Virus record (IMG/VR): IMGVR_UViG_2675903278_000003
Strand: one strand, 5' to 3'
Length of the DNA: 27,747 nt
Source of the DNA: a virus
Taxonomy: Duplodnaviria; Heunggongvirae; Uroviricota; Caudoviricetes
In this document: positions 626-25,666 of the stretch, piece after piece
How the letters are laid out: the number at the start of each line of letters is the position of its first letter
How positions within the stretch are numbered: the first letter of the stretch is position 1
Notes under the pieces: model-generated
Seen by the model: only the letters and a program-made list of their open reading frames with translations
Database searches by the model: none
What the model was told of the DNA's origin: nothing
Program-made: the position numbers and the translations under genes

Positions 626-1765
626 TTAACCAAGAATCAGACAACCATGTGCCGGCTTCACTGATGAAACACCCCATGCCAGTCCAACTTCATAGCGCAC
701 CTGGCGATACTGACGATACAGTGCAATCTGGAACGTAATCCCTGAAATCGGGTCCGTAACATTCATTACATCATCAGCATTATCGCCACCTTCCGGCATT
801 GCCGGAGTACGGGATGCCAGCAGAAACGCGTTGCGATCAAACGCCATATTTGCCGTAAAGGCCCCAACAACTGTGATGGCAGTATCATCGGCCAGATCCT
901 GACGCAGTCCGGGCGCTGCAAGAGTAATCAGATTGCTGGTCGCTGCTGCCACAACATACTGATTCGGATCACCAGCGAACGTAACAATCTGACCTGCAGA
1001 AATACTCCCCGAACCAGTATCAATGGAAATAAGAACATCGCCTTCTTTTTTCTCTCCATTCACGAGATAACCAGTTGCAGCAACCTTTGGCGCTCGTTTC
1101 ACACCTGCCGAACTGTGAATATTGAATCCCTCCAGACGCCCCAACACGCCCTCACGCAGTAGCTGTTCAGTGCCGGATTCATTCACTTTAAACAATACAG
1201 ACTGTTTTCCGCGCAAATTAGCAATGGCAGTGGAGCCAAGCACCATCTGCAGATCGGTTGTCGGTGCGCCGTTATCCTCCAGAACCTGACGAGCCAGAGC
1301 AGCATCAGAAAGATCATCTTTAACACCAAACGGCGTTGTCCCTGCGGTTCCCACGGCGCGGGAAGCACCGAAATACAACGCACCAAGATCAGCCTCAACC
1401 TCGTTTGCAAGGGCGCGAAAAGCCTGCTTGAACTGATCAGCCAGAATGGTGTTGTAAGTCCCTGAAGGGCCAAGAGCCAGTTGTTCTTCACCATTCCATT
1501 TAACCGGTGCCATTTTGGATTTAGTAATTTTTACATCAACAGTGCCAATATTTTGATCACCGGTATTCGGAGCTGACGGCCCCGGTACGATATCTTCGGT
1601 TTTCGCCTCAGGCGCAACTGGCGCGGTTACCGTCTGATCTTTTGCTGCGGCGTCAGCTTTTGCGTTTTTTGCTACCGCAGGGATAAAACCTACCTGCTCA
1701 CGGGATACAACATCCAGGGCGGTATAAATAGTCGGGATCAACCCGGTCAGGGTATTTCCAGCCAT
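626..1765 (-). CDS. Major capsid protein (379 aa from ATG at 1765, MAGNTLTG...)
   Basis: Long ORF at the end of the head module after portal, MuF-like and scaffold genes, followed by a terminator; the ORF-track start at 1858 would overlap the scaffold gene, so the internal ATG at 1763-1765 preceded by 'AAGGAA' is preferred. Call is from gene order and size, not a recognised motif. Confidence 0.65.
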   Translation of the reverse strand: MAGNTLTGLIPTIYTALDVVSREQVGFIPAVAKNAKADAAAKDQTVTAPVAPEAKTEDIVPGPSAPNTGDQNIGTVDVKITKSKMAPVKWNGEEQLALGPSGTYNTILADQFKQAFRALANEVEADLGALYFGASRAVGTAGTTPFGVKDDLSDAALARQVLEDNGAPTTDLQMVLGSTAIANLRGKQSVLFKVNESGTEQLLREGVLGRLEGFNIHSSAGVKRAPKVAATGYLVNGEKKEGDVLISIDTGSGSISAGQIVTFAGDPNQYVVAAATSNLITLAAPGLRQDLADDTAITVVGAFTANMAFDRNAFLLASRTPAMPEGGDNADDVMNVTDPISGITFQIALYRQYRQVRYEVGLAWGVSSVKPAHGCLILG

Positions 1766-1863
1766 AATTAAATATTCCTTAAAAATTTGCGTAATTGTGA
1801 ATAGATGGAGTAATGAGCTATCCAGCCCTGACACCAGCTCCCATCCGGAAGCTGACAAATGTG

Positions 1864-2628
1864 TTAATCAACGATTGTGATACCGTCTTTCAATGCGTTT
1901 TGCTTACCTGCAACATCCAGTGCATCAAAAGCAGAGCGTTTCATCGTTTTCTGACCAATATCATGCTGTGTCGGACGGGAGCCGCCGCCATTGTTGCCAC
2001 TGGCTTTCAGGATGTAGTCTTTCTGAGGGTAATTTTCGACAAGGAACTCCAGCGCCTCATCAAACTGCGCCAGTTCGCCAGGCTTCGCGCGGGAATAAAT
2101 TTTGTTGCCGGAAGCGTCATAAGCAACGATCCTCCCTTCTTCCACTTTGAATGCCTGCCCGAAGCGGGCTTGTAATAAATCTGCCGGGATCGCAATTTTA
2201 TCGGCAATATATTTTGAACCCGCAAAACTACCGCCAATCATAGAATCGTAAAGCTGCTTCTCCAGCATCTGAGAGCGTTGCTTTTCTTCATCTAATTGCT
2301 GCTGAAAATTTTTCGTAATTTCTGCCTTAACCTGGTCAACCTGTCCCGCATCGAGCAGCTTTTTCTGGTCGATTTTTGACAGCATTTCCAGTGCCTCGAT
2401 CGCCTTCTTCGGGTCTTCGATAGCGGCAAACTTAGCCAGTTTTTCCTCTGCAGCTTCTTTAGCCAGGCGATGATTTTTTGCCTCGCCATTAAGCTCTGTA
2501 ATTTTTTTTGTCGCCAGCGGTGCATCGAAGCCAATTTCTTTACCATCGTCGTGCACATAAACTGGCAGGCCAGCAGTATCAATTTCTGCGTATTGTTTTC
2601 CGTTAATCTCGACCGTTTTCAGTTTCAT
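1864..2628 (-). CDS. Head scaffolding-like protein (254 aa from ATG at 2628, MKLKTVEING...)
   Basis: Highly charged, predicted coiled-coil central region (EAKNHRLAKEAAEEKLAKFAAIEDPKKAIEALEMLSKIDQKKLLDAGQVDQVKAEI...) immediately upstream of the capsid gene; position-based call. Confidence 0.5.
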   Translation of the reverse strand: MKLKTVEINGKQYAEIDTAGLPVYVHDDGKEIGFDAPLATKKITELNGEAKNHRLAKEAAEEKLAKFAAIEDPKKAIEALEMLSKIDQKKLLDAGQVDQVKAEITKNFQQQLDEEKQRSQMLEKQLYDSMIGGSFAGSKYIADKIAIPADLLQARFGQAFKVEEGRIVAYDASGNKIYSRAKPGELAQFDEALEFLVENYPQKDYILKASGNNGGGSRPTQHDIGQKTMKRSAFDALDVAGKQNALKDGITIVD

Positions 2629-2732
2629 ATTAGTACCTGGTTTAAGTCTTCCGACAGTTACGCTGCTCACCATCCGGATCGCAGCAATAAAAAAGGCCAC
2701 CCGAAGGTAGCCTGTTGTAATAAATGATTTAT

Positions 2733-3848
2733 TTAAATCCCTGCTTTTCTGAATACCTGTGCATCACGCTCACGGAGCTGCTTCAGCGTCAGCCATTCGC
2801 CTTTATCGGTGTAAAATTCATCTGGCGACATACCACCATCCCGAATCAGCTTTGCTCGGGTTTCCCCCACAATCTGTTTTTGTCTGGTGTAAGGCTGACG
2901 CAAAAACCATTCCCTGTAGGTTGTATCTCCGGCCACCACGCCATCCATGCTGGCCCGCTCAGCCGGGGAAATATCGCGAACATCAATACCCAGTTCCTTC
3001 GCTGATTTCAGAATGAACGTTTCCGTTGAGCGGCAGCAGAAATGAATTTTTCCCGGCCCCTGCAAATAAGGCACGCTGTGACCTACAGGTTTATTATTCA
3101 GCGTATATTTGAGGCGATCCCTGATTCGACATTGTGGCGTAGTACGATTATCAAGCGTTGATAACCATTGCTTACCCTTAATCAAATCATTATTCGCGCT
3201 GGCAAAACTCTCACGGGCAGTAGCAGCAAGATGTCCAACCGCTGTTTTTGCAATGCTGGCCGCATTAGCCCGGCTCATCTGCAATGCACCATCCTGAAAT
3301 CCCTTACTGACATGTCCCCGAATTTTTCTTGCGATCTGCTCATTGGTATCCCCCAGCAAAAAACCCTGACGCACTGTATTTGTTATGCGTCTGAGCCGAT
3401 CCGCCTCAAGATCTGAGGCCCACTCACTGAGCAGTCGTCCCTGGAATGGTCGCGCCATTGCAGCGGCATAAAGTGCATCAGGAGAGATACCAACCAGAGG
3501 GTGAACATCAGCAACAAAATCAGGTAGCATAGAATCAAACAGACTTAACTGATAACCAGCCTCATAAATTGCCAGCTCGTTCAGCTCTCCGGAGAGACTG
3601 GTAAACATGCTGTTAATAGCAGTGCGGTTAACCTTTCTGACGCTCGCCAGAAGTGACTCCAGGCGCTTAACGGTAAAATTACCTGGATCGAGGCTGTCCA
3701 GTGCTATCAGCAGGCGAGCAGTAAGTTCCGCATCGCTGTCATTCAGTATTTTCACCATTCTGGCAGCCACGCCAGTGCTATAGCGGGATATCCAGACTGC
3801 ATGAGCAATTGATTCATCACGCAGCCGTTCATTCACGGTTTGCATCAT
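2733..3848 (-). CDS. Phage head morphogenesis protein, Mu gpF / SPP1 gp7-like minor head protein
   Basis: 371-aa ORF containing '...LSTLDNRTTPQCRIRD...', the hallmark motif I recall for the Mu F-like head morphogenesis family; located directly after the portal gene and overlapping its stop by 20 nt. Confidence 0.75.
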   Translation of the reverse strand: MMQTVNERLRDESIAHAVWISRYSTGVAARMVKILNDSDAELTARLLIALDSLDPGNFTVKRLESLLASVRKVNRTAINSMFTSLSGELNELAIYEAGYQLSLFDSMLPDFVADVHPLVGISPDALYAAAMARPFQGRLLSEWASDLEADRLRRITNTVRQGFLLGDTNEQIARKIRGHVSKGFQDGALQMSRANAASIAKTAVGHLAATARESFASANNDLIKGKQWLSTLDNRTTPQCRIRDRLKYTLNNKPVGHSVPYLQGPGKIHFCCRSTETFILKSAKELGIDVRDISPAERASMDGVVAGDTTYREWFLRQPYTRQKQIVGETRAKLIRDGGMSPDEFYTDKGEWLTLKQLRERDAQVFRKAGI

Positions 3849-5235
3849 TGATTTCCATCAGCATTACACTCTGATTTTTTAATTCATCGATCACTTCCTC
3901 TGGACGGGAATCCTGATCGATAAATTTCAACGCCTGCAACACCCGAACCGCATCAATCTGACGTATATCACCGCCCTGACGCAATGACTGAACAGCCAGC
4001 GCGGAGGATGAGTCAAACACCTGGGCAGATACATCCAGTTCAGTGCGCACATCCACATTGCCACCGCAACTCTCTCCGATCCATTCCGCCATTATCTGGA
4101 GAATATTATCGAGGGCATCTTCGAGGGAGTTCGCCATTGTATAAAGCGGCGAGTTTTCCTGCATTCGCTCTTCATTAGTCTGATCAACAGATTTGGTGGA
4201 TGTATTTTCAGCACGCAGAAGTTTAGCGCCGGCATGACGCATCTGATTTTCCAGCTTCTCAAGTGATGTTTCGCCAGATTCAATCGCTGCGCCACTATGT
4301 TCAACATATTCGAGGCCATTTTTTGTTCTGTCCTCAAAAATCGTAGCGGTGGATGCACCAACCGTCAGTTCTTCATTCCTGTCCAGCCCGTAGGCCACCA
4401 GCAATGGAACGCGGGCAACATGAAGAATATTGTCCTGCTCGCTCTGGCTTTGCCAGTGCTTGATATTCAGCAAGCCAAGATTAAGCAATGGCGGTGTACC
4501 ACGCATAAATCCTGTTTTCTTCGTGTACAGTGTTACCAGAGGAATATCATCACGGCTGGTATTCCATGACTCATGAAGCGTCCAGACAGATTCGCCATTA
4601 GTGCCTTCGCTACGTCGATAAATTTCAACTCGACGGGGCATAATATGGCGGATCTGCTCCACCTTCTTCTGCCCGAAATCATCACCATCAATAATGATGA
4701 CCTCTTTTATACGCAAATCAGTGAGAACAACTTTCCCTTTTTCAACTTTCGATTTCCATCCAATAACCTGGCGTGGATTCAGCATCGTAACGTACGGACG
4801 ACCACCGGTCGCGTTTTCATCGGCTTTTGTACGAATCTCTTTCATATCCGTTCGTGGGTAGTCCACCAGCGCATGTGCCACACCATACTGAAATGCGAGG
4901 CTGAAAAATTGCTGCGCCCACACATCCAGTCGGCTCCCCTCCATGTCGATATTTTCTGCATATTCCCTGATTTTTGCCGGCGTTTCCTCACTCAATACTG
5001 TCGGCTCTGCAAATATGCGCCCAATATTTTGCTTGATGCTTTCTTCATACACAGGAAGTAGCGTAGCCACAGACAGGCGTTTTTTATAAGCGTCTTCATC
5101 TTCGTTAGGCCATTTTGGGAGATAATTTTCCCCCTGCCTGCGCATTTCAAGCGTACCGCCCATCAGTGCGTCGTTAATATCCCACGCCTCCAGCATATCG
5201 TTATAGTCGAGGTTGGGTGTTGATATATCAGCCAT
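3829..5235 (-). CDS. Portal protein
   Basis: 468-aa ORF starting 3 nt after the TerL stop, acidic C-terminal region; position between large terminase and MuF-like gene. Confidence 0.7.
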   Translation of the reverse strand: MADISTPNLDYNDMLEAWDINDALMGGTLEMRRQGENYLPKWPNEDEDAYKKRLSVATLLPVYEESIKQNIGRIFAEPTVLSEETPAKIREYAENIDMEGSRLDVWAQQFFSLAFQYGVAHALVDYPRTDMKEIRTKADENATGGRPYVTMLNPRQVIGWKSKVEKGKVVLTDLRIKEVIIIDGDDFGQKKVEQIRHIMPRRVEIYRRSEGTNGESVWTLHESWNTSRDDIPLVTLYTKKTGFMRGTPPLLNLGLLNIKHWQSQSEQDNILHVARVPLLVAYGLDRNEELTVGASTATIFEDRTKNGLEYVEHSGAAIESGETSLEKLENQMRHAGAKLLRAENTSTKSVDQTNEERMQENSPLYTMANSLEDALDNILQIMAEWIGESCGGNVDVRTELDVSAQVFDSSSALAVQSLRQGGDIRQIDAVRVLQALKFIDQDSRPEEVIDELKNQSVMLMEINDANRE

Positions 5236-5237
5236 AA

Positions 5238-6548
5238 TTAAATCCGAAGTGATGTGACTCTTCCGGTCGGTTTGACAATAGGGAATTGCTTAACGATGAA
5301 ATAACCTCCGGCATCATTCGGGTGATCATTGCCAGATTTTTTATCAGGCTCCCCCTTCTCATCCCAGACCTGTTGCTCCAGAGATTCGGCATATAACGGG
5401 CAACGCTTCACATTAACTTTATAGCGACGCTCACCATTGGCATTGCAGAACATTGCATTCATTGAGTTAACGCGATCTTTTACTGGCGGGTTCGAGCTGT
5501 TCACCACAACGTTAAAACCAGCCTGCTTAAGCTGGGCTATATCCGTCGTACTTGCGTTACTTGATTTTCTGGAATCCCCGGAAGCATCTGGATAAATATA
5601 AATTTCCCTCACTTTCCGGTAATCATTCCCATCATACAGCCAGAAGCGTTCTTTAATGATGCGGATCATATCCGGCGTATCGTAGGCATTGATGATTTCA
5701 GTTACCGCACATGGAAGCCCCAAACGCAGCACATGGACGATTCCCGCCATCTTTCCAACGTTAAAATCCATCCCAATATAAATCGGCTCCCCTGGCTGCT
5801 CCACTTCTTCGCAATTATTCAGTTTCCGGTCAAACTGATGGTAAACAGTACCACTTGTCAGGTTAGTAAACTGTCCTCGAAGATAGGCTTTAATCAGCTC
5901 TGGAGGGTATGATTCAAGAAGCGAAGGAATGTAATCTGCTGGCAGGTTCTTTTCATTATCGAAAGTAGATGCCTGCACCAGACCATACAGTGAGGCCAGC
6001 TCTGTTTTTTCACGCACGGCTTTAACAAACTGCTCGTAGACAAATTTGAATCCTTCCGGCGTGGTTGTAACGTCAATACCGTTGCGAAGTCCATCAATCT
6101 TATAACGCATACGTGCAATTATCTTGCGCCACGCCGTTCTGGCTTTTTCCTTCGGCAAAATGTCCAGTTCATCCACCAACGCATTACCAATTTTGAAACC
6201 GACGATCGTTTGTGGCTTCTCCATCGATCTGCAGATAGTGGTTCCCCGATACTGGCGTCCGTAATAAAAGTGAACCTCTTTATTTCCCTCATTAATTTTT
6301 ACGTTCAATCCCCAGTCAGCAGCAACTTCTTCCACTGTAGGGTAAAAAATATCGCGAATTTGGGGATACGTTGGCGCAAAATATCCCTGATTTATACCTG
6401 GATGCTCCCAAATCCCCTTGCATATGCCGCCACACCCAACCCATATTTTGCCCGAGCCAAAACCAGCAATATAGGCTTTAAATTTATGGGGCATTGAAAG
6501 AAATCGCGCCTGAGGCACATTAAGCGTCGGAGAGATCATCTTCATCAC
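5238..6548 (-). CDS. Terminase large subunit (alternative start at about 6539, MISPTL...)
   Basis: 436-aa ORF with N-terminal P-loop-like 'AYIAGFGSGK' and a C-terminal acidic nuclease-like region (IYIGMDFNVG...DASGDS); immediately follows the small-subunit gene. Confidence 0.8.
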   Translation of the reverse strand: MMKMISPTLNVPQARFLSMPHKFKAYIAGFGSGKIWVGCGGICKGIWEHPGINQGYFAPTYPQIRDIFYPTVEEVAADWGLNVKINEGNKEVHFYYGRQYRGTTICRSMEKPQTIVGFKIGNALVDELDILPKEKARTAWRKIIARMRYKIDGLRNGIDVTTTPEGFKFVYEQFVKAVREKTELASLYGLVQASTFDNEKNLPADYIPSLLESYPPELIKAYLRGQFTNLTSGTVYHQFDRKLNNCEEVEQPGEPIYIGMDFNVGKMAGIVHVLRLGLPCAVTEIINAYDTPDMIRIIKERFWLYDGNDYRKVREIYIYPDASGDSRKSSNASTTDIAQLKQAGFNVVVNSSNPPVKDRVNSMNAMFCNANGERRYKVNVKRCPLYAESLEQQVWDEKGEPDKKSGNDHPNDAGGYFIVKQFPIVKPTGRVTSLRI

Positions 6549-7614
6549 TCCTTACTCTGGCATCAACCACATTAATATTGATCGCCACAGGCTGGGGATG
6601 TTCATTATCTTCCACCGTTTCGATCTCTTTGCGCAGCTTCTGGTTTTCCATTCTGCGCCGTTCAATTTCCAGTTCCTGTAGCCGTTTATCTGCACATAAA
6701 GCCCCGCCAGCAGAAAACAAACGCAACAATTCACGCCGGGCGGCAGCCTTATCCTCCAGCAGGATCTCAACGCCGAATTTTCCGAATTTTGCCCCTGCAT
6801 ATAATTGCCGCGCATCCCCATCAAGCAGAGTGGTATCAGCCATATAAAGCTGTCCCGTTCCCTCACCGCAGCACTTCGGGCAGTCCGGATTGGGTATGGC
6901 GTTATCAACAAAGCCGAGGCCTCCATATTCCGGTTCGGGTTTGCCATCTCTGGAAGCCTGCGCCGCTGCCTTGTCGAATTCTGCTATATCGCGCCACTGG
7001 TAGAGATGATTCTCGCCCCAGCAATAACGGCAGTTAACACGGCGAAATTGTGCAAGCTGATTGGGGTCGGCCAGGACAATAGCCATCAACTGACTCACTA
7101 GTAAATCCAGGTCTGCGGTATAGCGTTTCTGGTACTGATTGCGGAAGTAGCTGATAGCGCGAAAAACCCTGGCATTTCTAAGCATACGACTGGCGTTGCT
7201 GTTAGCTGTCGCACCTTGCCCCTCATAACCGGCTAGTCGGTACGCCTCTGTCGGCTTTTTACCCTGAGCAACAAGCATCGCAAACTTAGCCTGCTGGTCA
7301 GAAATGCCGAATTCATCGGGACAGAACGAAAATTCCTCCGCGTCGCCCTCATTCAGGCCCGCATCGAATACTGGCTTTTTTTCCTGAGATTTTTCGTTCC
7401 GCTTTTGTGCAGTCTGCGCAGATTTTTTCTGCGCACTTTTTTGCGCAGTTTTGCACATTTCTGTCTGCGCATTTTTCGGAGTTTTTTTGATGTAACGACG
7501 GGCTGTTGCGTAATTCAGTCCCCTTGCTTCACACCATGCCACCGGAGATATACCGGAGCGGGTGTATTCAGCAATATACTCCTGCTGCAACGCCCCCCAG
7601 TCCGGTCTGCTCAT
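6520..7614 (-). CDS. Terminase small subunit (Terminase_2 / P27-like core with N-terminal HTH and lysine-rich linker)
   Basis: 364 aa; segment 'QQAKFAMLVAQGKKPTEAYRLAGYEGQGATANSNASRMLRNARVFRAI' resembles the small-terminase signature; gene lies directly upstream of TerL with overlap. Confidence 0.65.
   Translation of the reverse strand: MSRPDWGALQQEYIAEYTRSGISPVAWCEARGLNYATARRYIKKTPKNAQTEMCKTAQKSAQKKSAQTAQKRNEKSQEKKPVFDAGLNEGDAEEFSFCPDEFGISDQQAKFAMLVAQGKKPTEAYRLAGYEGQGATANSNASRMLRNARVFRAISYFRNQYQKRYTADLDLLVSQLMAIVLADPNQLAQFRRVNCRYCWGENHLYQWRDIAEFDKAAAQASRDGKPEPEYGGLGFVDNAIPNPDCPKCCGEGTGQLYMADTTLLDGDARQLYAGAKFGKFGVEILLEDKAAARRELLRLFSAGGALCADKRLQELEIERRRMENQKLRKEIETVEDNEHPQPVAININVVDARVRSDEDDLSDA
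7406..7471. repeat. Cluster of palindromic hexamers TGCGCA (4 exact copies plus TGTGCA and TGCACA variants) inside the terminase small subunit gene
   Basis: Exact 'tgcgca' at 7415-7420, 7430-7435, 7442-7447 and 7466-7471, variants at 7406-7411 and 7453-7458; underlies the KTAQKSAQKKSAQTAQK peptide repeat. Confidence 0.6.
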
Positions 7615-7617
7615 CAG

Positions 7618-7869
7618 TTAGTCCTGATTTTTATCCACCCTGAGTAGTTCGCGCAGAGCAAAGGCATCCCCTTTTCTGGCAAGCTTAAACAATGCCGCTC
7701 GTAACTCGGCTTCACCTTTCGCTCTGCCCTTACGGATGGCCGCATAAAAATCTGTCATTGCTTCCCGATTTTCTTTCAGTCGGTTCAGATCAACATCCAG
7801 AACGTCAGCGATTTGTTGTGCAGTCATCCGGCACGCTGCCAGAGACTCGACTTTCGAATACGGAATCAT
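7618..7869 (-). CDS. Small helix-turn-helix protein just upstream of terminase small subunit (83 aa; possible alternative start at 7827, MTAQQIADVL...)
   Basis: ORF MIPYSKVESLAACRMTAQQIADVLDVDLNRLKENREAMTDFYAAIRKGRAKGEAELRAALFKLARKGDAFALRELL...; stop 4 nt before the TerS start; overlaps the 3' end of the upstream GT2-like gene. Confidence 0.5.
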   Translation of the reverse strand: MIPYSKVESLAACRMTAQQIADVLDVDLNRLKENREAMTDFYAAIRKGRAKGEAELRAALFKLARKGDAFALRELLRVDKNQD

Positions 7870-8737
7870 TTGTCACCCCCATTGATATGCAGGGTGTCTT
7901 CTTCCTGTATTTTTCGTGAAGGATTTTTACTGCAGCGTTGTTCCAGGTGACCTGATGGTGAATGCGTTTATGGCTGGCACCCATCAGTGAGATTTTTACG
8001 CACGACGGCGCATACATGACGGAGTAAAAACTTTTAACGTAGGTTCCGGAATCCAGATACAGCTCGGTCATTCCGCCGCTGTTTTTCTGCGTCTGTTTCT
8101 GCCCTAACTGGACAGCACCGATCGTCATAAACAATTCACCACAGCGACCGAGATTCGTGTACGTATTCACATCCTCGTTAATGCGCCCCATGAATGGGAA
8201 CGGTCGATCAACCGAACAGATAAAGCTGTTCATTGCCTTGCGTTTCACCCACGAAGCATGGCCGCCATTGTCACCAAGAAAATCCCCGCCCTGCGACATA
8301 GCGATGGAAAGAGCAGGTATTGATTCGTAGTACGCCAGCATTTCAGAAAGGATCGCATCCAGTTTCCTTATCGGAAAATAGGCCTGGTCATAGTTGCGAT
8401 CCACCCGAAACTGGAACTCGTGATAATCATCATCGAGCTGAATGAAGTATTTACACCCGACCAGTTTTGCCAGGTCGAAACAGGCATTACGGGCGTAAAA
8501 AATTGAGCGGCGGTCACAGAAATTATCGGCTTCGTCAAAACGACTGGCGATATCGGCTTTGGAAAACACCAGCACCTGTTCACCAAATTCAGCCATGTAC
8601 TGATTCCGTGTCTTATCTTCATCATCAACAACGATAAAAATTTTCCCGGTATAGCCAGCACGACGCAACGTCCGGTAAGTCAGAACTTTGTCCGGTCGCC
8701 CGTGAGTCAGAATAAAGGCGCAAAAATCATCACGCAT
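7805..8737 (-). CDS. GT2-family (GT-A fold) glycosyltransferase-like protein, apparently soluble (310 aa from ATG at 8737, MRDDFCAF...)
   Basis: From the ATG at 8735-8737 (SD 'GGAGGAGG' just upstream): 'FILTHGRPDKV' near residue 10, 'FIVVDDED' (DD about residue 38-39), 'FYARNACFDLAKLVGCKYFIQLDDDY' (ARN...DxD about residue 82-104), a spacing typical of GT2 enzymes; no methyltransferase motifs seen. Confidence 0.55.
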   Translation of the reverse strand: MRDDFCAFILTHGRPDKVLTYRTLRRAGYTGKIFIVVDDEDKTRNQYMAEFGEQVLVFSKADIASRFDEADNFCDRRSIFYARNACFDLAKLVGCKYFIQLDDDYHEFQFRVDRNYDQAYFPIRKLDAILSEMLAYYESIPALSIAMSQGGDFLGDNGGHASWVKRKAMNSFICSVDRPFPFMGRINEDVNTYTNLGRCGELFMTIGAVQLGQKQTQKNSGGMTELYLDSGTYVKSFYSVMYAPSCVKISLMGASHKRIHHQVTWNNAAVKILHEKYRKKTPCISMGVTNDSVFESRVSGSVPDDCTTNR

Positions 8738-9521
8738 ATTCCTCCTCCTCACCACCATGCATGATCTCCACCATGCGCTGCGTCATCCGGACAAATCCAT
8801 TTTCAATAGCCTGCTGATAATCAATGATCACCAGCGCCGACTCCTCGAAAAAACACTGAATTTCAGAGGGGGCGTGAGCGTAATAGTCCGCAATTCTGCT
8901 GAAATTAAACACCGTGTGACGTTCTGCCGCACACAGGAGGAATTTCTCAATATCAGGCTCAAGGGACGCCGAACGTATCCGGCTGATCAGCTCCTGAGTT
9001 TTCGTATCGTCGTACAGTTCACTGATATCCGGTTTACCGCCCGACGGCTCATAAACAGGCGTATCAATTTTCGTCGTATACGGCTCCTCCTCATTTCCTG
9101 TACCGGGCAAAACATCCGTCAACAGTTCATCAATTTCTGTCGGGATGAAGCCTGTCAGGGAGACATCAAAATCAGCATTGATTAGGTCCGACAGCTCCAT
9201 CCGCAACAGATCTTCATCCCAGCCAGCATTCATCGGCAGGCGATTATCTGCCAGGCGGTACGCCTTTTTCTGCTCATCCGTCAGGCCAGACAGAACAATG
9301 ACCGGAACAGAATCCATTTTGAGCATTTCAGCCGCCATAACACGACCGTGACCCGCAATAATTTCGCCCTTTTCGTCAATCAGCACCGGATTAGTCCAGC
9401 CGAATTGCTTAATACTTTCTACCAGTTGTGCCACCTGCTCAGGGCTGTGCGTCCTGGCGTTGTGCGCATACGGTGACAATTCTTGTAATGGGCGATAGAC
9501 TATCTTTAATTTCTCGCTCAT
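8730..9521 (-). CDS. ParB-like nuclease domain (ParB N-terminal / sulfiredoxin fold) protein
   Basis: 263 aa; N-terminal 'QFGWTNPVLIDEKGEIIAGHGRVMAA' resembles the ParB N-terminal domain motif; acidic C-terminus GGEEEEYA; stop TGA at 8730-8732 lies 3 nt after the ATG of the GT2-like gene (8-nt overlap). Confidence 0.7.
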   Translation of the reverse strand: MSEKLKIVYRPLQELSPYAHNARTHSPEQVAQLVESIKQFGWTNPVLIDEKGEIIAGHGRVMAAEMLKMDSVPVIVLSGLTDEQKKAYRLADNRLPMNAGWDEDLLRMELSDLINADFDVSLTGFIPTEIDELLTDVLPGTGNEEEPYTTKIDTPVYEPSGGKPDISELYDDTKTQELISRIRSASLEPDIEKFLLCAAERHTVFNFSRIADYYAHAPSEIQCFFEESALVIIDYQQAIENGFVRMTQRMVEIMHGGEEEEYA

Positions 9522-9658: not shown

Positions 9659-11134
9659 TTAGGAGCGCCAAAAAAAACCTGAAAACAATATAATAACAGG
9701 ATAAATTTCAAGGCGACCAAGAATCATAGCTATGCACATTAAACATTTTGCAATGTCATTAAGCACTCCGAATGACGATGCAGTAGCCCCAAAACCTAAT
9801 CCCATATTATTAATACATGCAGCCACTGTTGCAAATGATGTAAGAAAATCATATCCCATACCATTTAACACCAGTATAAAAAACACCGTGAAGAGAGTAT
9901 AAAGAAAAAAGAAACTCCATACAGACCTCATTACACGATCTGTAACTATCTTCCCTCCTACATTTACACTCAACAACGCTCTGGGATGAGAAAGCTGATT
10001 TATCTCGTGTTTGCTTTGTTTGAAAAGTATAAGAAATCGAAGTGACTTAATTCCACCACAAGTTGAACCTATACATCCCCCAAAGAAACTTGACAACAGC
10101 AAAAACACTATCGTGTGCGTGGGCCAACTTGCATAATCCTGCGTAGCTAAACCATTATCAGTGAGCATGGAGCTGGCAAGAAAAAACGAATGAATAAAAC
10201 TTCCATGCAAGTCATACATACCTATATGCCAGACCTGGAAAGAGGTAACAATGATCACCCCTAAGGCTATTAACAGAAAGAAACGAAGTTCAATATCTCT
10301 GATTAAAGGTTTTATCGTTTTCCTGCTAATAACAATATACCAAAGAGTGAAGTTGAAAGCCGATAGCAGGGAAAAAGAACCAGCCACCAGCTCAACCAAA
10401 TAGTTATTAAAATATCCGATACTCTCGCTATGAGTTGAGAAACCACCAAGCGAAACTGTGGAAATCCCGTGACAAATAGCATCAAACAAAGGCATTCCTG
10501 CAAGTCTATAACAGACAATACAAGCAATACCTAATAAAGAATAAGTTATCCACAGTGTCCGTGACGTATCGGCCAGGCGGGGAGTGAGTTTGTCATCCTT
10601 AAATGGCCCCGGCATTTCTGACTGATAAAGCTTTGCACCACCAATACCCAATAATGGCAATACAGCAACCGCCAGAACAATAACTCCTAAACCACCTATA
10701 AAATTTAACTGTGACCGATAGTACAAATATGCCCGAGGTAATGAACTAACATCATCAATTACAGTTGCTCCTGTTGTTGTTATTCCAGAAACCCCTTCAA
10801 ACAGAGCATCAATGAACGTTAAATTAAGTTCTGAGTCAATCCATAAAGGGAATGCACTAATAACAGAAAACAAAATCCAAAACATTACAATTATAATAAA
10901 CCCATCACGGGTACGTAATTGAATGCCAGATTTCTTAGTTGTATACCACGCTCCGCCACCAATGCAAAAAAATATAACGAAAGTTATAAAGAAAACGAAC
11001 AGGCTTTTTTCTTTATAAAACAATGCTACAACCATTGGTGGCAACATTGAAAGACTATAGAGCCAAACCAGGAACCCACACATATGAGTAACAACTCTTA
11101 CATGAGATGTATTCATATCTAAATATTCTTTCAA
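9659..11134 (-). CDS. trkG: TrkH/TrkG-family potassium uptake protein (prophage-borne, TrkG-like)
   Basis: 491-aa multi-TM protein with repeated glycine-rich selectivity-filter-like segments (GITTTGATV, GGLGV, GGFST, GFGAT); markedly AT-rich compared with neighbouring phage genes; sits directly after Rz/Rz1 as trkG does in the E. coli K-12 Rac prophage. Confidence 0.85.
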   Translation of the reverse strand: MKEYLDMNTSHVRVVTHMCGFLVWLYSLSMLPPMVVALFYKEKSLFVFFITFVIFFCIGGGAWYTTKKSGIQLRTRDGFIIIVMFWILFSVISAFPLWIDSELNLTFIDALFEGVSGITTTGATVIDDVSSLPRAYLYYRSQLNFIGGLGVIVLAVAVLPLLGIGGAKLYQSEMPGPFKDDKLTPRLADTSRTLWITYSLLGIACIVCYRLAGMPLFDAICHGISTVSLGGFSTHSESIGYFNNYLVELVAGSFSLLSAFNFTLWYIVISRKTIKPLIRDIELRFFLLIALGVIIVTSFQVWHIGMYDLHGSFIHSFFLASSMLTDNGLATQDYASWPTHTIVFLLLSSFFGGCIGSTCGGIKSLRFLILFKQSKHEINQLSHPRALLSVNVGGKIVTDRVMRSVWSFFFLYTLFTVFFILVLNGMGYDFLTSFATVAACINNMGLGFGATASSFGVLNDIAKCLMCIAMILGRLEIYPVIILFSGFFWRS

Positions 11135-20382: not shown

Positions 20383-21675
20383 CTATGGTTTTTTATTAGA
20401 ATCTTCGCCACTAAATAAATTATAATAAATTGATTTTATTAGATATCTGTCAGAATCTATATGGTCAGCACGAGTAGCATGCTCTAATGTTTCAAATGCT
20501 AGGGTTTGTGCGGCTTCAGCAAAAATTCCAGGCCAACCCTTACTCAGCATCGACAGTCCTTTAAGTACCCTTATCTGAATTTCCCTCATACTGGCACCAT
20601 CGCGCGCAACAGGTGAGAAAAAGTCTTCAAGTAGATCGTTATTCTGAAGTGGTGCAACATGTACAGAAGGATATTTCACTTCTATTTCATCAGATTTATT
20701 CTGCGCGTAAGCGGAAAGTATACGTACACCTCTGCCAATGACATCAATGGCGGTTCCAGGATCGTTCACTGCGGGGGAAAGGGCTCGGCAGGCTATTTCG
20801 GCCATGACGCTAAGACAAAATCGGGGGTCCTGAGCAAATGAACGTACATCCGAGACAATAATCGTCTCAAGTAAATCGGTGCTGATTGATGACTCCTGGC
20901 CCTGACTCAGGTACAAAACTGGCGTGGACGGATGTATGAAACTGCCCGGCTGCGCCACGAGGTATACATGACGGGGATCATTGGTCAGCAGCTTGCTGAG
21001 TTTCACCATATCAACATATTCAACATAGCCAATCTTTTTCGGATAAACTGCAACCGTTCCTTTCGGCTGTTCATTGTTCTCAAGCCATGGATATCCGCCG
21101 AGACAGGGATTTCTTGCTCTCGCAATAAATGTTTCGATGGCCGCCTGTTCTACTTTTGCCGTTGTCTCACCAACCCTCCCCAGAGAGGTCAAATGCTGTA
21201 TCCAGCGAAGCAATGTGATGAGGATTAAGGCAATGACAACCAGTGTTACAATGAATAAAATGACTCTCCCCCTTTCTCCATAAGCTCCCATATTGAGGGC
21301 AATAATCCCTACCAGACTGAAGAGAAAAGAACCGATGAAGGTGGCCAGTACATTTTGTGTGGTGACGTCTTCAACAACTAAACGAGTAGCTCTGGGAGTC
21401 ACATTAGTAGTGGCTGAACCGTAGGCTGTGACCATGATGCTCAGCGAAAATGTGGTCACTGCCAGCATACTCGATGCCAGTATGTTCAGAATGTTATCGA
21501 CTGCTTCCGCACCAACCTTCACGGAAACCGACTCAGGTATCATTGATTTAAAAAGAATTGATAAAAGGGCCGTTATTATTGCGACAATTGCGAATAACGT
21601 TGCCCTGAACCATAGTTTTTTAAATGTCTGCTTCAGCATCCATTTCCAGCGTGAAATCATTCTGCATTCCCTCAT
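20383..21675 (-). CDS. DUF2254-like membrane protein (N-terminal TM helices plus large soluble domain)
   Basis: 430-aa ORF with about four N-terminal hydrophobic helices; family name from memory; start may be at the internal Met (MISRWKW...). Confidence 0.6.
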   Translation of the reverse strand: MRECRMISRWKWMLKQTFKKLWFRATLFAIVAIITALLSILFKSMIPESVSVKVGAEAVDNILNILASSMLAVTTFSLSIMVTAYGSATTNVTPRATRLVVEDVTTQNVLATFIGSFLFSLVGIIALNMGAYGERGRVILFIVTLVVIALILITLLRWIQHLTSLGRVGETTAKVEQAAIETFIARARNPCLGGYPWLENNEQPKGTVAVYPKKIGYVEYVDMVKLSKLLTNDPRHVYLVAQPGSFIHPSTPVLYLSQGQESSISTDLLETIIVSDVRSFAQDPRFCLSVMAEIACRALSPAVNDPGTAIDVIGRGVRILSAYAQNKSDEIEVKYPSVHVAPLQNNDLLEDFFSPVARDGASMREIQIRVLKGLSMLSKGWPGIFAEAAQTLAFETLEHATRADHIDSDRYLIKSIYYNLFSGEDSNKKP

Positions 21676-24524: not shown

Positions 24525-25595
24525 TTACCCCCTGAAGCCCGGCGGAATTTCGTTATCCGGTTCAGAAATATGATTCACACAACGCTGGTTGTTCGTGCCG
24601 CTTACCGGGAGCAACCAGGGGTTCTCAAAATTCCGGTCCGGTCCAAAAAACGTCGTCGCTCGCTGAACAAATTCCGTTCCCGTTTTCCCGGTAGCCGCCA
24701 AGTATCTTGCGTAACGCCTCACGCCATCCAGCATGGCCTCTGGTGGCACCCCCTCGCGTAATCTGGCCTTCCAGGCACTGAAAGCGGATTTCTTCGGGTT
24801 TGCCCCAGCACGCAACGGGTACTCCCGCCAGACCTGTTCGAACACATCCGGATAATCCACTCGTCCCACAGACTGCCCGGTGTTTTCCGGGACTACCCGA
24901 TCGGCTTCCCGCTGAATGGCGGAATCGGCTTCAGGCTGCTGCAGTTGGTGTGATTGCTCCGCCCTTGCGGTCATCACCTGCTGCACAGCGCCCGAATCGG
25001 CTTTCAGCGCATACGCTGAATCGGCTTCCGGTGTCGTGCCTGCTGGCTGACCAAGATTGACGGTCTGAACATCCCCTGCCTGGTTCGTGGCGTTTTTTAC
25101 GCCATGGACCATAGTGTTTTGATCTTCTTGATCTGTATCTTTATCTGTATCTTTATCTGTCGTGACTCGTCGTGACATGTGCGTGACATTTCGTGACGCG
25201 CCGTGACAATCGCCATTTTGTTCCCGCTTTCTTTCCCTCTCTCGCTGCGCCCTCTTGCGCTCTGCAGGAGATTTTGCGGTTTGCGAAATATTGCCGTTGT
25301 CCTCTTTAAGCACCTGGCGTTTTTCCCATCCAGTGATTAAATCACCATCAAGTACCCGCCCCTGCATCGTCTGCAAAATTGAATCAATTACCTCTTCTGT
25401 CACGTCGAGCGCACTTGCCAAATCTTCTGTCGTGACATCAATGTGACCTCGCGTGACATTTCGTGACGCGCTCACCAGGAGGTGGATATACACTGCCATC
25501 ACTGTTGCAATTGGCTGTCCTGACACCCTGGCAATTGTTCGCCACTTAGGGTCATTTGGCATGTCATGCCATAATCTGAGCCAGGCGTTAGCCAT
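24525..25595 (-). CDS. Replication initiator (lambda O-like / YdaU-like replisome organiser) containing internal iterons
   Basis: 356 aa from ATG at 25595 (MANAWLRLWHDMPNDPKW...); the coding sequence contains two clusters of GTGAC-type repeats, as lambda O carries its own ori iterons; low-complexity acidic middle (DKDTDKDTDQED); located downstream of Cro-like/YdaT-like genes. Confidence 0.6.
   Translation of the reverse strand: MANAWLRLWHDMPNDPKWRTIARVSGQPIATVMAVYIHLLVSASRNVTRGHIDVTTEDLASALDVTEEVIDSILQTMQGRVLDGDLITGWEKRQVLKEDNGNISQTAKSPAERKRAQRERERKREQNGDCHGASRNVTHMSRRVTTDKDTDKDTDQEDQNTMVHGVKNATNQAGDVQTVNLGQPAGTTPEADSAYALKADSGAVQQVMTARAEQSHQLQQPEADSAIQREADRVVPENTGQSVGRVDYPDVFEQVWREYPLRAGANPKKSAFSAWKARLREGVPPEAMLDGVRRYARYLAATGKTGTEFVQRATTFFGPDRNFENPWLLPVSGTNNQRCVNHISEPDNEIPPGFRG
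25161..25210. repeat. Iteron cluster A: five copies of a 10-bp-periodic 'cGTGACa' motif, adjacent to an AT/GATC-rich stretch (about 25115-25160) with tandem 'tatctttatctg'
   Basis: 'cgtgactcgt cgtgacatgt gcgtgacatt tcgtgacgcg ccgtgacaat' read directly from the sequence; the 20-mer 'gcgtgacatttcgtgacgcg' recurs exactly at 25451-25470. Confidence 0.7.
25427..25470. repeat. Iteron cluster B: four GTGAC-type repeats including an exact 20-bp copy of part of cluster A
   Basis: 'ctgtcgtgacatcaatgtgacctcgcgtgacatttcgtgacgcg'; also within the O-like coding region (encodes SRNVT-type peptide repeats). Confidence 0.65.
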
Positions 25596-25666
25596 ACTCA
25601 CCTCTTTTGATACCGAATCTTTTTACTCACAAATTGCCGGAAGTGATCCGGTATGAATATTGCGAG

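Follow-up and report, generated by a model that had tools for sequence, protein, structure and literature searches.

A TGCGCA array within the small terminase gene of a Rac-like Escherichia coli prophage is a candidate pac site

The virus record IMGVR_UViG_2675903278_000003 (Caudoviricetes; 27,747 nucleotides, all of which we call the window) covers a Rac-like Escherichia coli prophage, adjoined by trkG, in which the small terminase gene terS lies directly upstream of the large terminase gene terL, followed by DUF4055, Mu-F-like and P22-type coat genes. An earlier note on this DNA had pointed to four exact copies of the palindrome TGCGCA and two one-mismatch variants within about 65 bp of terS, and had offered two readings of them, a packaging (pac) site bound by the small terminase subunit TerS or simply the DNA footprint of a peptide repeat. 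We found that the span 7406..7471 holds exactly six such positions, which read on the plus strand TGTGCA-gtc-TGCGCA-gattttttc-TGCGCA-cttttt-TGCGCA-gttt-TGCACA-tttctgtc-TGCGCA, and that this 66-bp array occupies codons 48-70 of terS (gene nt 144-209 on the coding strand; translation KNAQTEMCKTAQKSAQKKSAQTAQK), where the lysine-rich (S/T)AQK repeat described in the note is indeed encoded (KNAQTEMCKTAQKSAQKKSAQTAQKR). The spacers between hexamers are A/T-rich (A-tracts). Tandem Repeats Finder detected a weak 12- and 15-bp periodicity in the array, but hexamer spacings are irregular (7-16 bp, mean 12.6), and thus a wrapping model has no support from simple helical phasing. Just downstream of the array, still in linker-coding DNA, lies a 12-nt inverted repeat (7324-7335 and 7388-7399; GAACGAAAATTC and GATTTTTCGTTC; 92% complementary, 52 nt apart).

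The hexamer is not over-represented in the window as a whole (13 copies, compared to 12.2 expected), but its clustering is exceptional: none of 1000 dinucleotide-preserving shuffles placed four or more TGCGCA in 62 bp, the shuffle maximum being three, seen once. At a threshold of at least three copies in 80 bp, the terS array was the sole such place in the window, and no place outside terS reached it in an E. coli locus of 41 kb or in a Klebsiella prophage record of 48 kb.

TerS begins with 44 residues (MSRPDWGALQQEYIAEYTRSGISPVAWCEARGLNYATARRYIKK) that we take to be a helix-turn-helix (HTH) domain, and the first hexamer of the array starts 11 nt past codon 44. An AlphaFold2 (AF2) model, built from a shallow alignment and poor overall (mean predicted local distance difference test score, pLDDT, of 50.7), was used only for the N-terminal helices and the linker behind them; it gave residues 1-44 as helical with moderate confidence (pLDDT 73-81) and residues 45-94 as low in confidence and presumably disordered (about 33). 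Since the linker is predicted to be disordered, the array would sit where constraint from the protein is weakest. The N-terminal domain matched no family in Pfam or NCBIfam, its sole match being a sub-threshold one to the IS66 TnpA HTH, and sequence searches of the PDB with TerS and TerL returned nothing useful.

Whether the hexamers are conserved in relatives as DNA or as protein was a check that the earlier note had proposed, and the answer is conservation at the DNA level. We gathered terS homologues from GenBank phages, IMG/VR and GTDB genomes, and obtained 67 distinct terS genes with the same N-terminal domain, 38 of which were kept at less than 93% identity over the first 330 nt. TGCGCA clusters at one place across these genes (gene nt about 138-210), even where the TerS proteins are only 36-45% identical. 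With synonymous codons permuted within each gene, nt 120-215 of the 38 genes were expected to contain 23.6 hexamers, compared to 174 observed, and the excess was significant in each of the 36 genes that carry TGCGCA (P <= 0.002 in every case); the remaining two, of Yersinia type, have an array of TGCGAA in its place. The same permutation gave 0.72 expected and 4 observed in the window terS (P = 0.0005), and, as a positive control, 2.8 expected and 8 observed in pacA of phage P1 (P = 0.0005). Furthermore, the 174 hexamers are distributed over all three reading phases: 132 are in phase 2 (xxT-GCG-CAx), 32 in phase 1 (encoding L/V/M-R-x) and 10 in phase 0 (C-A). Phase-2 hexamers are preceded by T, S, N, A, P, I, G, D or F, with the codon ending in T every time, and in relatives at 36-45% identity TGCGCA is found with different flanking residues or, in the other phases, encodes L/V/M-R-T or C-A. 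Thus the peptide varies while the DNA is fixed in three phases, the reverse of what a peptide-repeat footprint would leave, and what selection maintains is the motif in the DNA rather than the amino acids that it encodes. Among the 28 distinct sequences of the close E. coli clade, many have five or six intact TGCGCA: the two positions that are degenerate in the window are intact in 22 of the 28 (7452..7457, encoding M/V/L-R-K) and in 19 of the 28 (7406..7411), while hexamer copies 2, 4 and 6 have each been lost in some variants.

The array is also strictly linked to the N-terminal domain of TerS. When we scanned IMG/VR in the reverse direction, for three closely spaced TGCGCA, we recovered 64 distinct arrays whose start is no more than about 150 nt from where the coding region for the N-terminal domain ends (1-45 nt downstream of it in the first 80 loci), and most of the other matches inspected were unrelated perfect tandem repeats. 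TerS homologues without the domain had no array. Conversely, domain and array occur together on three TerS cores (phrog_51, phrog_370 and phrog_1711), and on other terminase cores we found seven TGCGCA after the domain in Aeromonas phage phiARM81mr and five in the Shiga toxin (Stx) phage GER2.

Moreover, the motif of the array and the presumed recognition helix switch together. A helix with ARR[YH] accompanies TGCGCA in 64 of 65 distinct cases in the array-selected set and in nearly all of the protein-selected set, whereas AKR[YH] accompanies TGCGAA, often as TGCGAATTCGCA, in four of five array-selected loci and in the Yersinia vB_YenM phages, Klebsiella RothC, Providencia PSTCR3 and Pasteurella Pmp11. 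We saw no crossed pairs of helix and motif. In Pmp11 the TGCGAA units are 8-9 direct repeats (eight of them in gene nt 120-310), encoded as C-E or A-N. A reverse scan for TGCGAA arrays recovered the domain at only 6 of 120 loci, the matches being mostly unrelated tandem repeats in large-virus contigs. The clearest natural pair is that of GER2 and Stx phage 933W, whose TerS proteins are 76% identical overall and near-identical from residue 95 on, but differ in the helix (DTARRYIKL in GER2, NTARTRIKM in 933W) and in the array (five TGCGCA compared to four GATCAT). The GATCAT repeats of the 933W terS gene L0112 (locus L378, 4917-4958; gene nt 142-183; peptide IDHEIDHKTDHEIDH) follow an exact 12-bp period, account for all four GATC (Dam) sites in that terS and resemble the left arm of the P1 pac site, which suggests methylation-sensitive packaging in Stx2 phages. 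More distant variants of the N-terminal domain have repeated motifs of their own just downstream (TCGCGA, GTGGAAAC, GGGGCA and GGTTCGCA).

Many terS genes of Klebsiella/Enterobacter type carry a second arm of two or three TGCGCA farther downstream, at about 150 nt from the main array, encoding V-A-Q, I-A-Q or I-V-R-T, although in some it is absent. These second-arm hexamers are again in excess over synonymous shuffles (41 observed and 7.6 expected in Klebsiella-type relatives), as in Klebsiella phage ST11-VIM1phi8.2 (gene nt 348-403; locus L380, about 20592-20640) and about 20 related loci. This is a P1-like two-arm layout.

TGCGCA arrays are also present in other settings. Six copies follow a different, more distant N-terminal HTH (…STLRKRIASGGW) in locus L140 (about 2090-2230), an irregular array lies at the 3' end of an open reading frame (ORF) with replication-protein-like sequence in L170 (about 10433-10560), and another, in L182 (about 1056-1220), spans only short ORFs that lack a domain match. 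They may represent iterons or pac-like sites of other elements.

The comparison with P1 that the earlier note had drawn turned out to be more than an analogy. PacA, the recognition subunit of the P1 terminase, belongs to phrog_1711, a family that residues 6-80 of the window TerS match at E = 4e-5, and P1 PacA in turn matches phrog_370, a reciprocal cross-hit in PHROG. In a profile comparison (hhalign), the N-terminal domain aligned with residues 2-41 of PacA over 40 columns (probability 89%, E = 2e-6), with the segments NLNPNTARRYL of PacA and GLNYATARRYI of the window TerS brought together. On these matches, we regard the N-terminal domain of TerS as remotely homologous to the N terminus of PacA. 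In P1, pac is a 161-bp segment within pacA with seven Dam-containing hexamers, and these are needed for packaging: their synonymous recoding reduced the titre about 9-fold (PMC10028697). From the annotated P1 record, we found the TGATCA/G hexamers at pacA nt 194-233 and 324-380, in mixed reading phases, flanking the mapped cleavage sites (pacA nt 276-285) and a site for integration host factor (IHF), and starting 73 nt after the PacA HTH. The two systems thus share repeated hexamers in the 5' coding part of the recognition-subunit gene, shortly after an N-terminal HTH and at an equivalent position, in mixed phases and with an equal signature under codon shuffling. Unlike in the window, the P1 hexamers form two arms (4 + 3) on either side of the cut, with an IHF site in between and a GATC in each hexamer that gives Dam control, and the window TerS differs from PacA in its core (Terminase_2/phrog_51), the rest of PacA and PacB being unrelated to the core of the window TerS and to its TerL.

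From these comparisons, we consider the array to be very probably a set of binding sites for the TerS N-terminal domain, and probably the recognition part of the pac site of this prophage. Of the two readings in the earlier note, the pac/TerS-binding array is therefore the one that comparative evidence supports, while the peptide footprint did not survive the phase and codon data. The window pac candidate is most probably a simplified version of the P1 plan, with one arm and neither Dam nor IHF control, placed on a different terminase. In such a scheme, four to six short hexamers, written into the DNA that encodes the flexible linker of TerS itself, would be sites for its N-terminal HTH; TerS would oligomerise via its Terminase_2 core, and several tethered HTH domains would dock, one per hexamer, over about 60 bp with A-tract spacers. 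Docking would mark the phage DNA and recruit TerL, which would cut nearby and start unidirectional headful packaging. Here we infer the binding of TerS to the hexamers, the position of the cut, the direction of packaging and any role of the spacers in bending.

Headful packaging is likely for the window prophage on indirect grounds, namely the relatives of its TerL, a report on one of their type, and transduction by 933W. The window TerL shares 40-51% identity with the large terminases of Jersey-, Kaguna- and Dhillon-type siphophages, and a published PhageTerm analysis assigned a Dhillonvirus to headful pac packaging (PMC13348001). Phage 933W, which shares the TerS N-terminal domain with the window prophage, is a generalized transducer whose packaged DNA was interpreted as terminally redundant (PMC3752737). 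The coordinates of these genes, and of the individual hexamers, are collected in Table 1. Head genes of the DUF4055, Mu-F-like and P22-type coat kinds are associated with headful packaging.

Table 1. Features of the window around terS and its hexamer array (strand: -, minus;., unstranded; hexamer positions are followed by the gene nt of terS)
Feature	Position	Strand	Remarks
terS, small terminase subunit, 364 aa	6520..7614	-	Pfam Terminase_2, phrog_51, PGAP annotation
N-terminal helix-turn-helix domain, aa 1-44	7483..7614	-	presumed recognition helix YATARRYIKK; proposed hexamer reader
Lysine-rich linker, aa 45-94	7333..7482	-	predicted disordered, pLDDT about 33; array inside its coding DNA
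Terminase_2 core of TerS, aa 122-321	6652..7251	-	Pfam; has its own HTH
Hexamer array, candidate pac recognition array	7406..7471	.	six positions: four intact TGCGCA and two degenerate
One-mismatch copy	7406..7411	.	gene nt 204, codons T-A-Q; TGTGCA on plus strand, TGCACA on coding strand
Exact TGCGCA	7415..7420	.	gene nt 195, codons S-A-Q; intact in 27/28 distinct close relatives, G-to-A in one
Exact TGCGCA	7430..7435	.	gene nt 180, codons S-A-Q; TGCGCG in 6/28 close relatives
Exact TGCGCA	7442..7447	.	gene nt 168, codons T-A-Q; no variation among close relatives
One-mismatch copy	7452..7457	.	gene nt 158, phase 1, codons M-C-K; TGCACA on plus strand, TGTGCA on coding strand
Exact TGCGCA	7466..7471	.	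gene nt 144, codons N-A-Q; no variation among close relatives
terL, large terminase	5238..6548	-	Terminase_6N/6C
DUF4055 protein in portal position	3829..5235	-	portal role suggested by gene order
Mu-F-like minor head protein	2733..3848		
P22-type coat protein	626..1858		

We considered four other explanations of the array. If the hexamers merely reflected, at the DNA level, a tandem repeat of the peptide (S/T)AQK, with codons shared through recent duplication, one would expect the phase that is in fact seen in all four intact window copies (phase 2, encoding x-A-Q), and the weak 12- and 15-bp periodicity would follow as well; but synonymous shuffles yield only 0.7 hexamers in the window gene region and 23.6 in the 38 genes, compared to 4 and 174 observed. 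In addition, 42 of the 174 hexamers are in other phases (L/V/M-R-x or C-A), any of nine amino acids can precede A-Q and yet the T wobble base is constant, one of the window's own degenerate copies lies in phase 1 (M-C-K, with M-R-K in relatives), and sister lineages have other DNA motifs that encode quite different peptides (C-E, I-D-H, A-N-S). A coding tandem repeat of peptides with free synonymous variation in a single phase is the opposite of this pattern, and we rejected it; the footprint explanation as a whole is the least probable that we considered. Only slightly less improbable is an action of the palindromes through structure, either as mRNA hairpins that affect terS translation or stability or as cruciform DNA. 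A 111-nt mRNA segment does fold at -30.8 kcal/mol (z = -4.0 relative to shuffles; z = -3.1 for the DNA strand), and inverted-repeat pairs were found among the hexamers, but arrays of GC-rich palindromes in general would score in this way, and we set the z-scores aside as a by-product. The arrays vary freely among relatives (2-9 copies at spacings of 7-30 bp), such that no fixed structure is conserved, and the sister arrays are non-palindromic direct repeats that are unable to pair (TGCGAA in Pmp11; four GATCAT in 933W).

The remaining two explanations accept that a protein binds the hexamers. They might be sites for another DNA-binding protein of the phage or host, such as a regulator, a nucleoid protein, a methyltransferase or a restriction enzyme; TGCGCA contains GCGC and is the site of the type II restriction enzyme FspI, and an 83-aa ORF with HTH-like sequence lies just upstream of terS. 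However, neither this ORF nor the other neighbours are conserved in the array-bearing Klebsiella, Yersinia, Aeromonas or Stx phages, the only constant partner being the TerS N-terminal domain, with whose recognition helix the motif switches, and TGCGCA is neither avoided nor enriched elsewhere; we judge such a role to be very unlikely. An operator would be somewhat easier to accept, though still unlikely: TerS, or its N-terminal domain, could bind the array to autoregulate terS and terL, with the cut site specified elsewhere. The observations that tie the array to the N-terminal domain would all suit an operator just as well; transcription could be blocked by protein bound there, within the gene, and the window has no IHF site or second arm. 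Against this, the array at the same position in P1, to which the profile match is remote, is the pac site itself, and TerS is established as the subunit that recognises DNA for packaging (PMC9611059). No promoter-related feature turned up, and none was sought. Because of the P1 precedent, we consider an operator less likely than a pac site.

Several observations nevertheless weigh against a pac site read by the N-terminal domain. The match to PacA is remote and confined to the N terminus (40 columns by hhalign, about 75-80 residues by PHROG), with a pairwise BLASTP E of only 0.045, and the window TerL is unrelated to PacB (BLASTP E = 0.81). The window terS has no second hexamer arm (one TGCGCA elsewhere in the gene, 0.75 expected), no GATC in its TGCGCA hexamers, unlike P1 and 933W, and no match to the IHF consensus WATCAANNNNTTR with at most one mismatch within 7200-7600. 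The helix/motif co-variation may rest on few independent evolutionary events, and the motifs other than TGCGCA were picked after inspection, such that their P values are optimistic. The R/K residue of the helix was rejected as the sole determinant of specificity, since P1 has ARRY with TGATCA. Within the close E. coli clade, divergence among the 28 distinct sequences is too low to separate hexamer columns from spacer columns. Two of six hexamer positions are degenerate in the window copy, and a copy of the 1.5 kb around terS (window 6400-7900) that is 100% identical sits in a prophage truncated by IS1, for which reason this particular array may be idle. Finally, literature searches gave no mapped termini, binding data or paper for the phage family of the window, and, with subscription literature not covered, no description of a TGCGCA pac site, in Rac or Stx phages or otherwise. 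The terS region itself is common, being present in 906 of 5426 complete E. coli genomes, and examples of decay are found in the family: in phage Rac-SA53 (locus L004, 1351-2379) a deletion has fused gpO to TerS, with loss of the HTH domain and retention of two TGCGCA, and in E. coli genomes P0006 and H69 terS is fused to a tail-fibre gene.

The parallels that the earlier note had drawn with P22 and SPP1 stand with respect to location in or near terS, but not beyond it. In P22, a headful packager, the signal lies inside the small-terminase gene as a single 22-bp site in gene 3, although specific binding of TerS to it has not been shown in vitro (PMC9611059). The window array resembles P22 and Sf6/ES18-type pac sites in its position within the gene, and differs from P22 in being an array of repeats, not a single asymmetric 22-bp sequence; we saw no sequence similarity between the two. 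Pac sites of the SPP1/SF6 kind consist of repeated boxes with bent A-tract DNA. TerS makes multiple contacts there, at pacL-pacC-pacR, which flank the cut in or near gene 1 (PMC9611059). The box sequences and the fold context of TerS are different in SPP1/SF6, whose TerS has no extra N-terminal domain before the Terminase_2-type HTH, and the SPP1 sites lie partly upstream of the gene.

Two likenesses to phage lambda are also of interest. The R-elements of lambda cosB are repeated sites read by the N-terminal (winged) HTH of gpNu1, beside its own gene, but they belong to a cos system, in which IHF takes part and the nick site (cosN) is fixed, and they are 16 bp long and outside the coding region. 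The window TerL, which is of the Terminase_6 type and close to those of headful phages, argues against cos. The lambda ori iterons in gene O are like the terS array in that the binding sites of a protein lie in the linker-coding part of its own gene, but they serve replication, not packaging, and the proteins are unrelated to TerS. The window has an array of its own that looks like a lambda-O-type origin, with iterons within the initiator's own gene: in the replisome-organizer ORF 24525..25601 (minus strand), at 25129-25207, three TCTTTATCTGTA repeats are followed by five CGTGAC with a 10-11 bp period (25161-25207). CGTGAC is over-represented across the window (18 copies, 9.4 expected).

Our broader proposal is tentative, and we would put it a little short of even. 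The PacA-like HTH and its own hexamer array might form a portable "address label" module that has moved among at least three unrelated small-terminase cores and diversified into several specificities, with a few changes in the recognition helix tracking the motif each time. The specificities would include TGCGCA, TGCGAA, GATCAT, TGATCA/G and TCGCGA, and possibly GTGGAAAC, GGGGCA and GGTTCGCA. If so, such modules would amount to a natural, readable and re-programmable protein-DNA code for packaging specificity, one that could explain and predict cross-packaging among phages, satellites and chromosomal pseudo-sites. There is as yet no settled account of how pac DNA is recognised by small terminases; according to a 2022 review, sequence-specific binding of TerS to pac has not been reproduced in vitro for P22, Sf6, SF6 or SPP1 (PMC9611059). 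The case described here is simpler, with a 6-bp motif in 4-9 copies, a small and separable HTH domain, and natural pairs on a near-identical core (such as GER2 and 933W). The N-terminal domain occurs in more than 130 records of Stx2a-converting phages, and knowledge of pac signals bears on how virulence and resistance genes are moved by generalized and lateral transduction, and would permit engineered packaging of phagemids, as already done with P1.

We also noted other genes between trkG and terS. Two ORFs on the minus strand (7805..8758 and 8730..9521) encode a TET-associated-type glycosyltransferase (Pfam TAGT, phrog_842; named "GREB1-related" by PGAP) and a protein with a ParB/Srx N-terminal domain, possibly a DNA-modification module; no TET/JBP dioxygenase was present among the window ORFs scanned, which were those of 626-9521. 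The 83-aa HTH-like ORF immediately upstream of terS (7618..7869, minus strand) has no annotated counterpart at this place in the Klebsiella and Yersinia relatives. It matches phrog_309, another small-terminase family, in the C-terminal part (positions 145-218 of 319), and may be left over from such a gene or act as an accessory protein in packaging.

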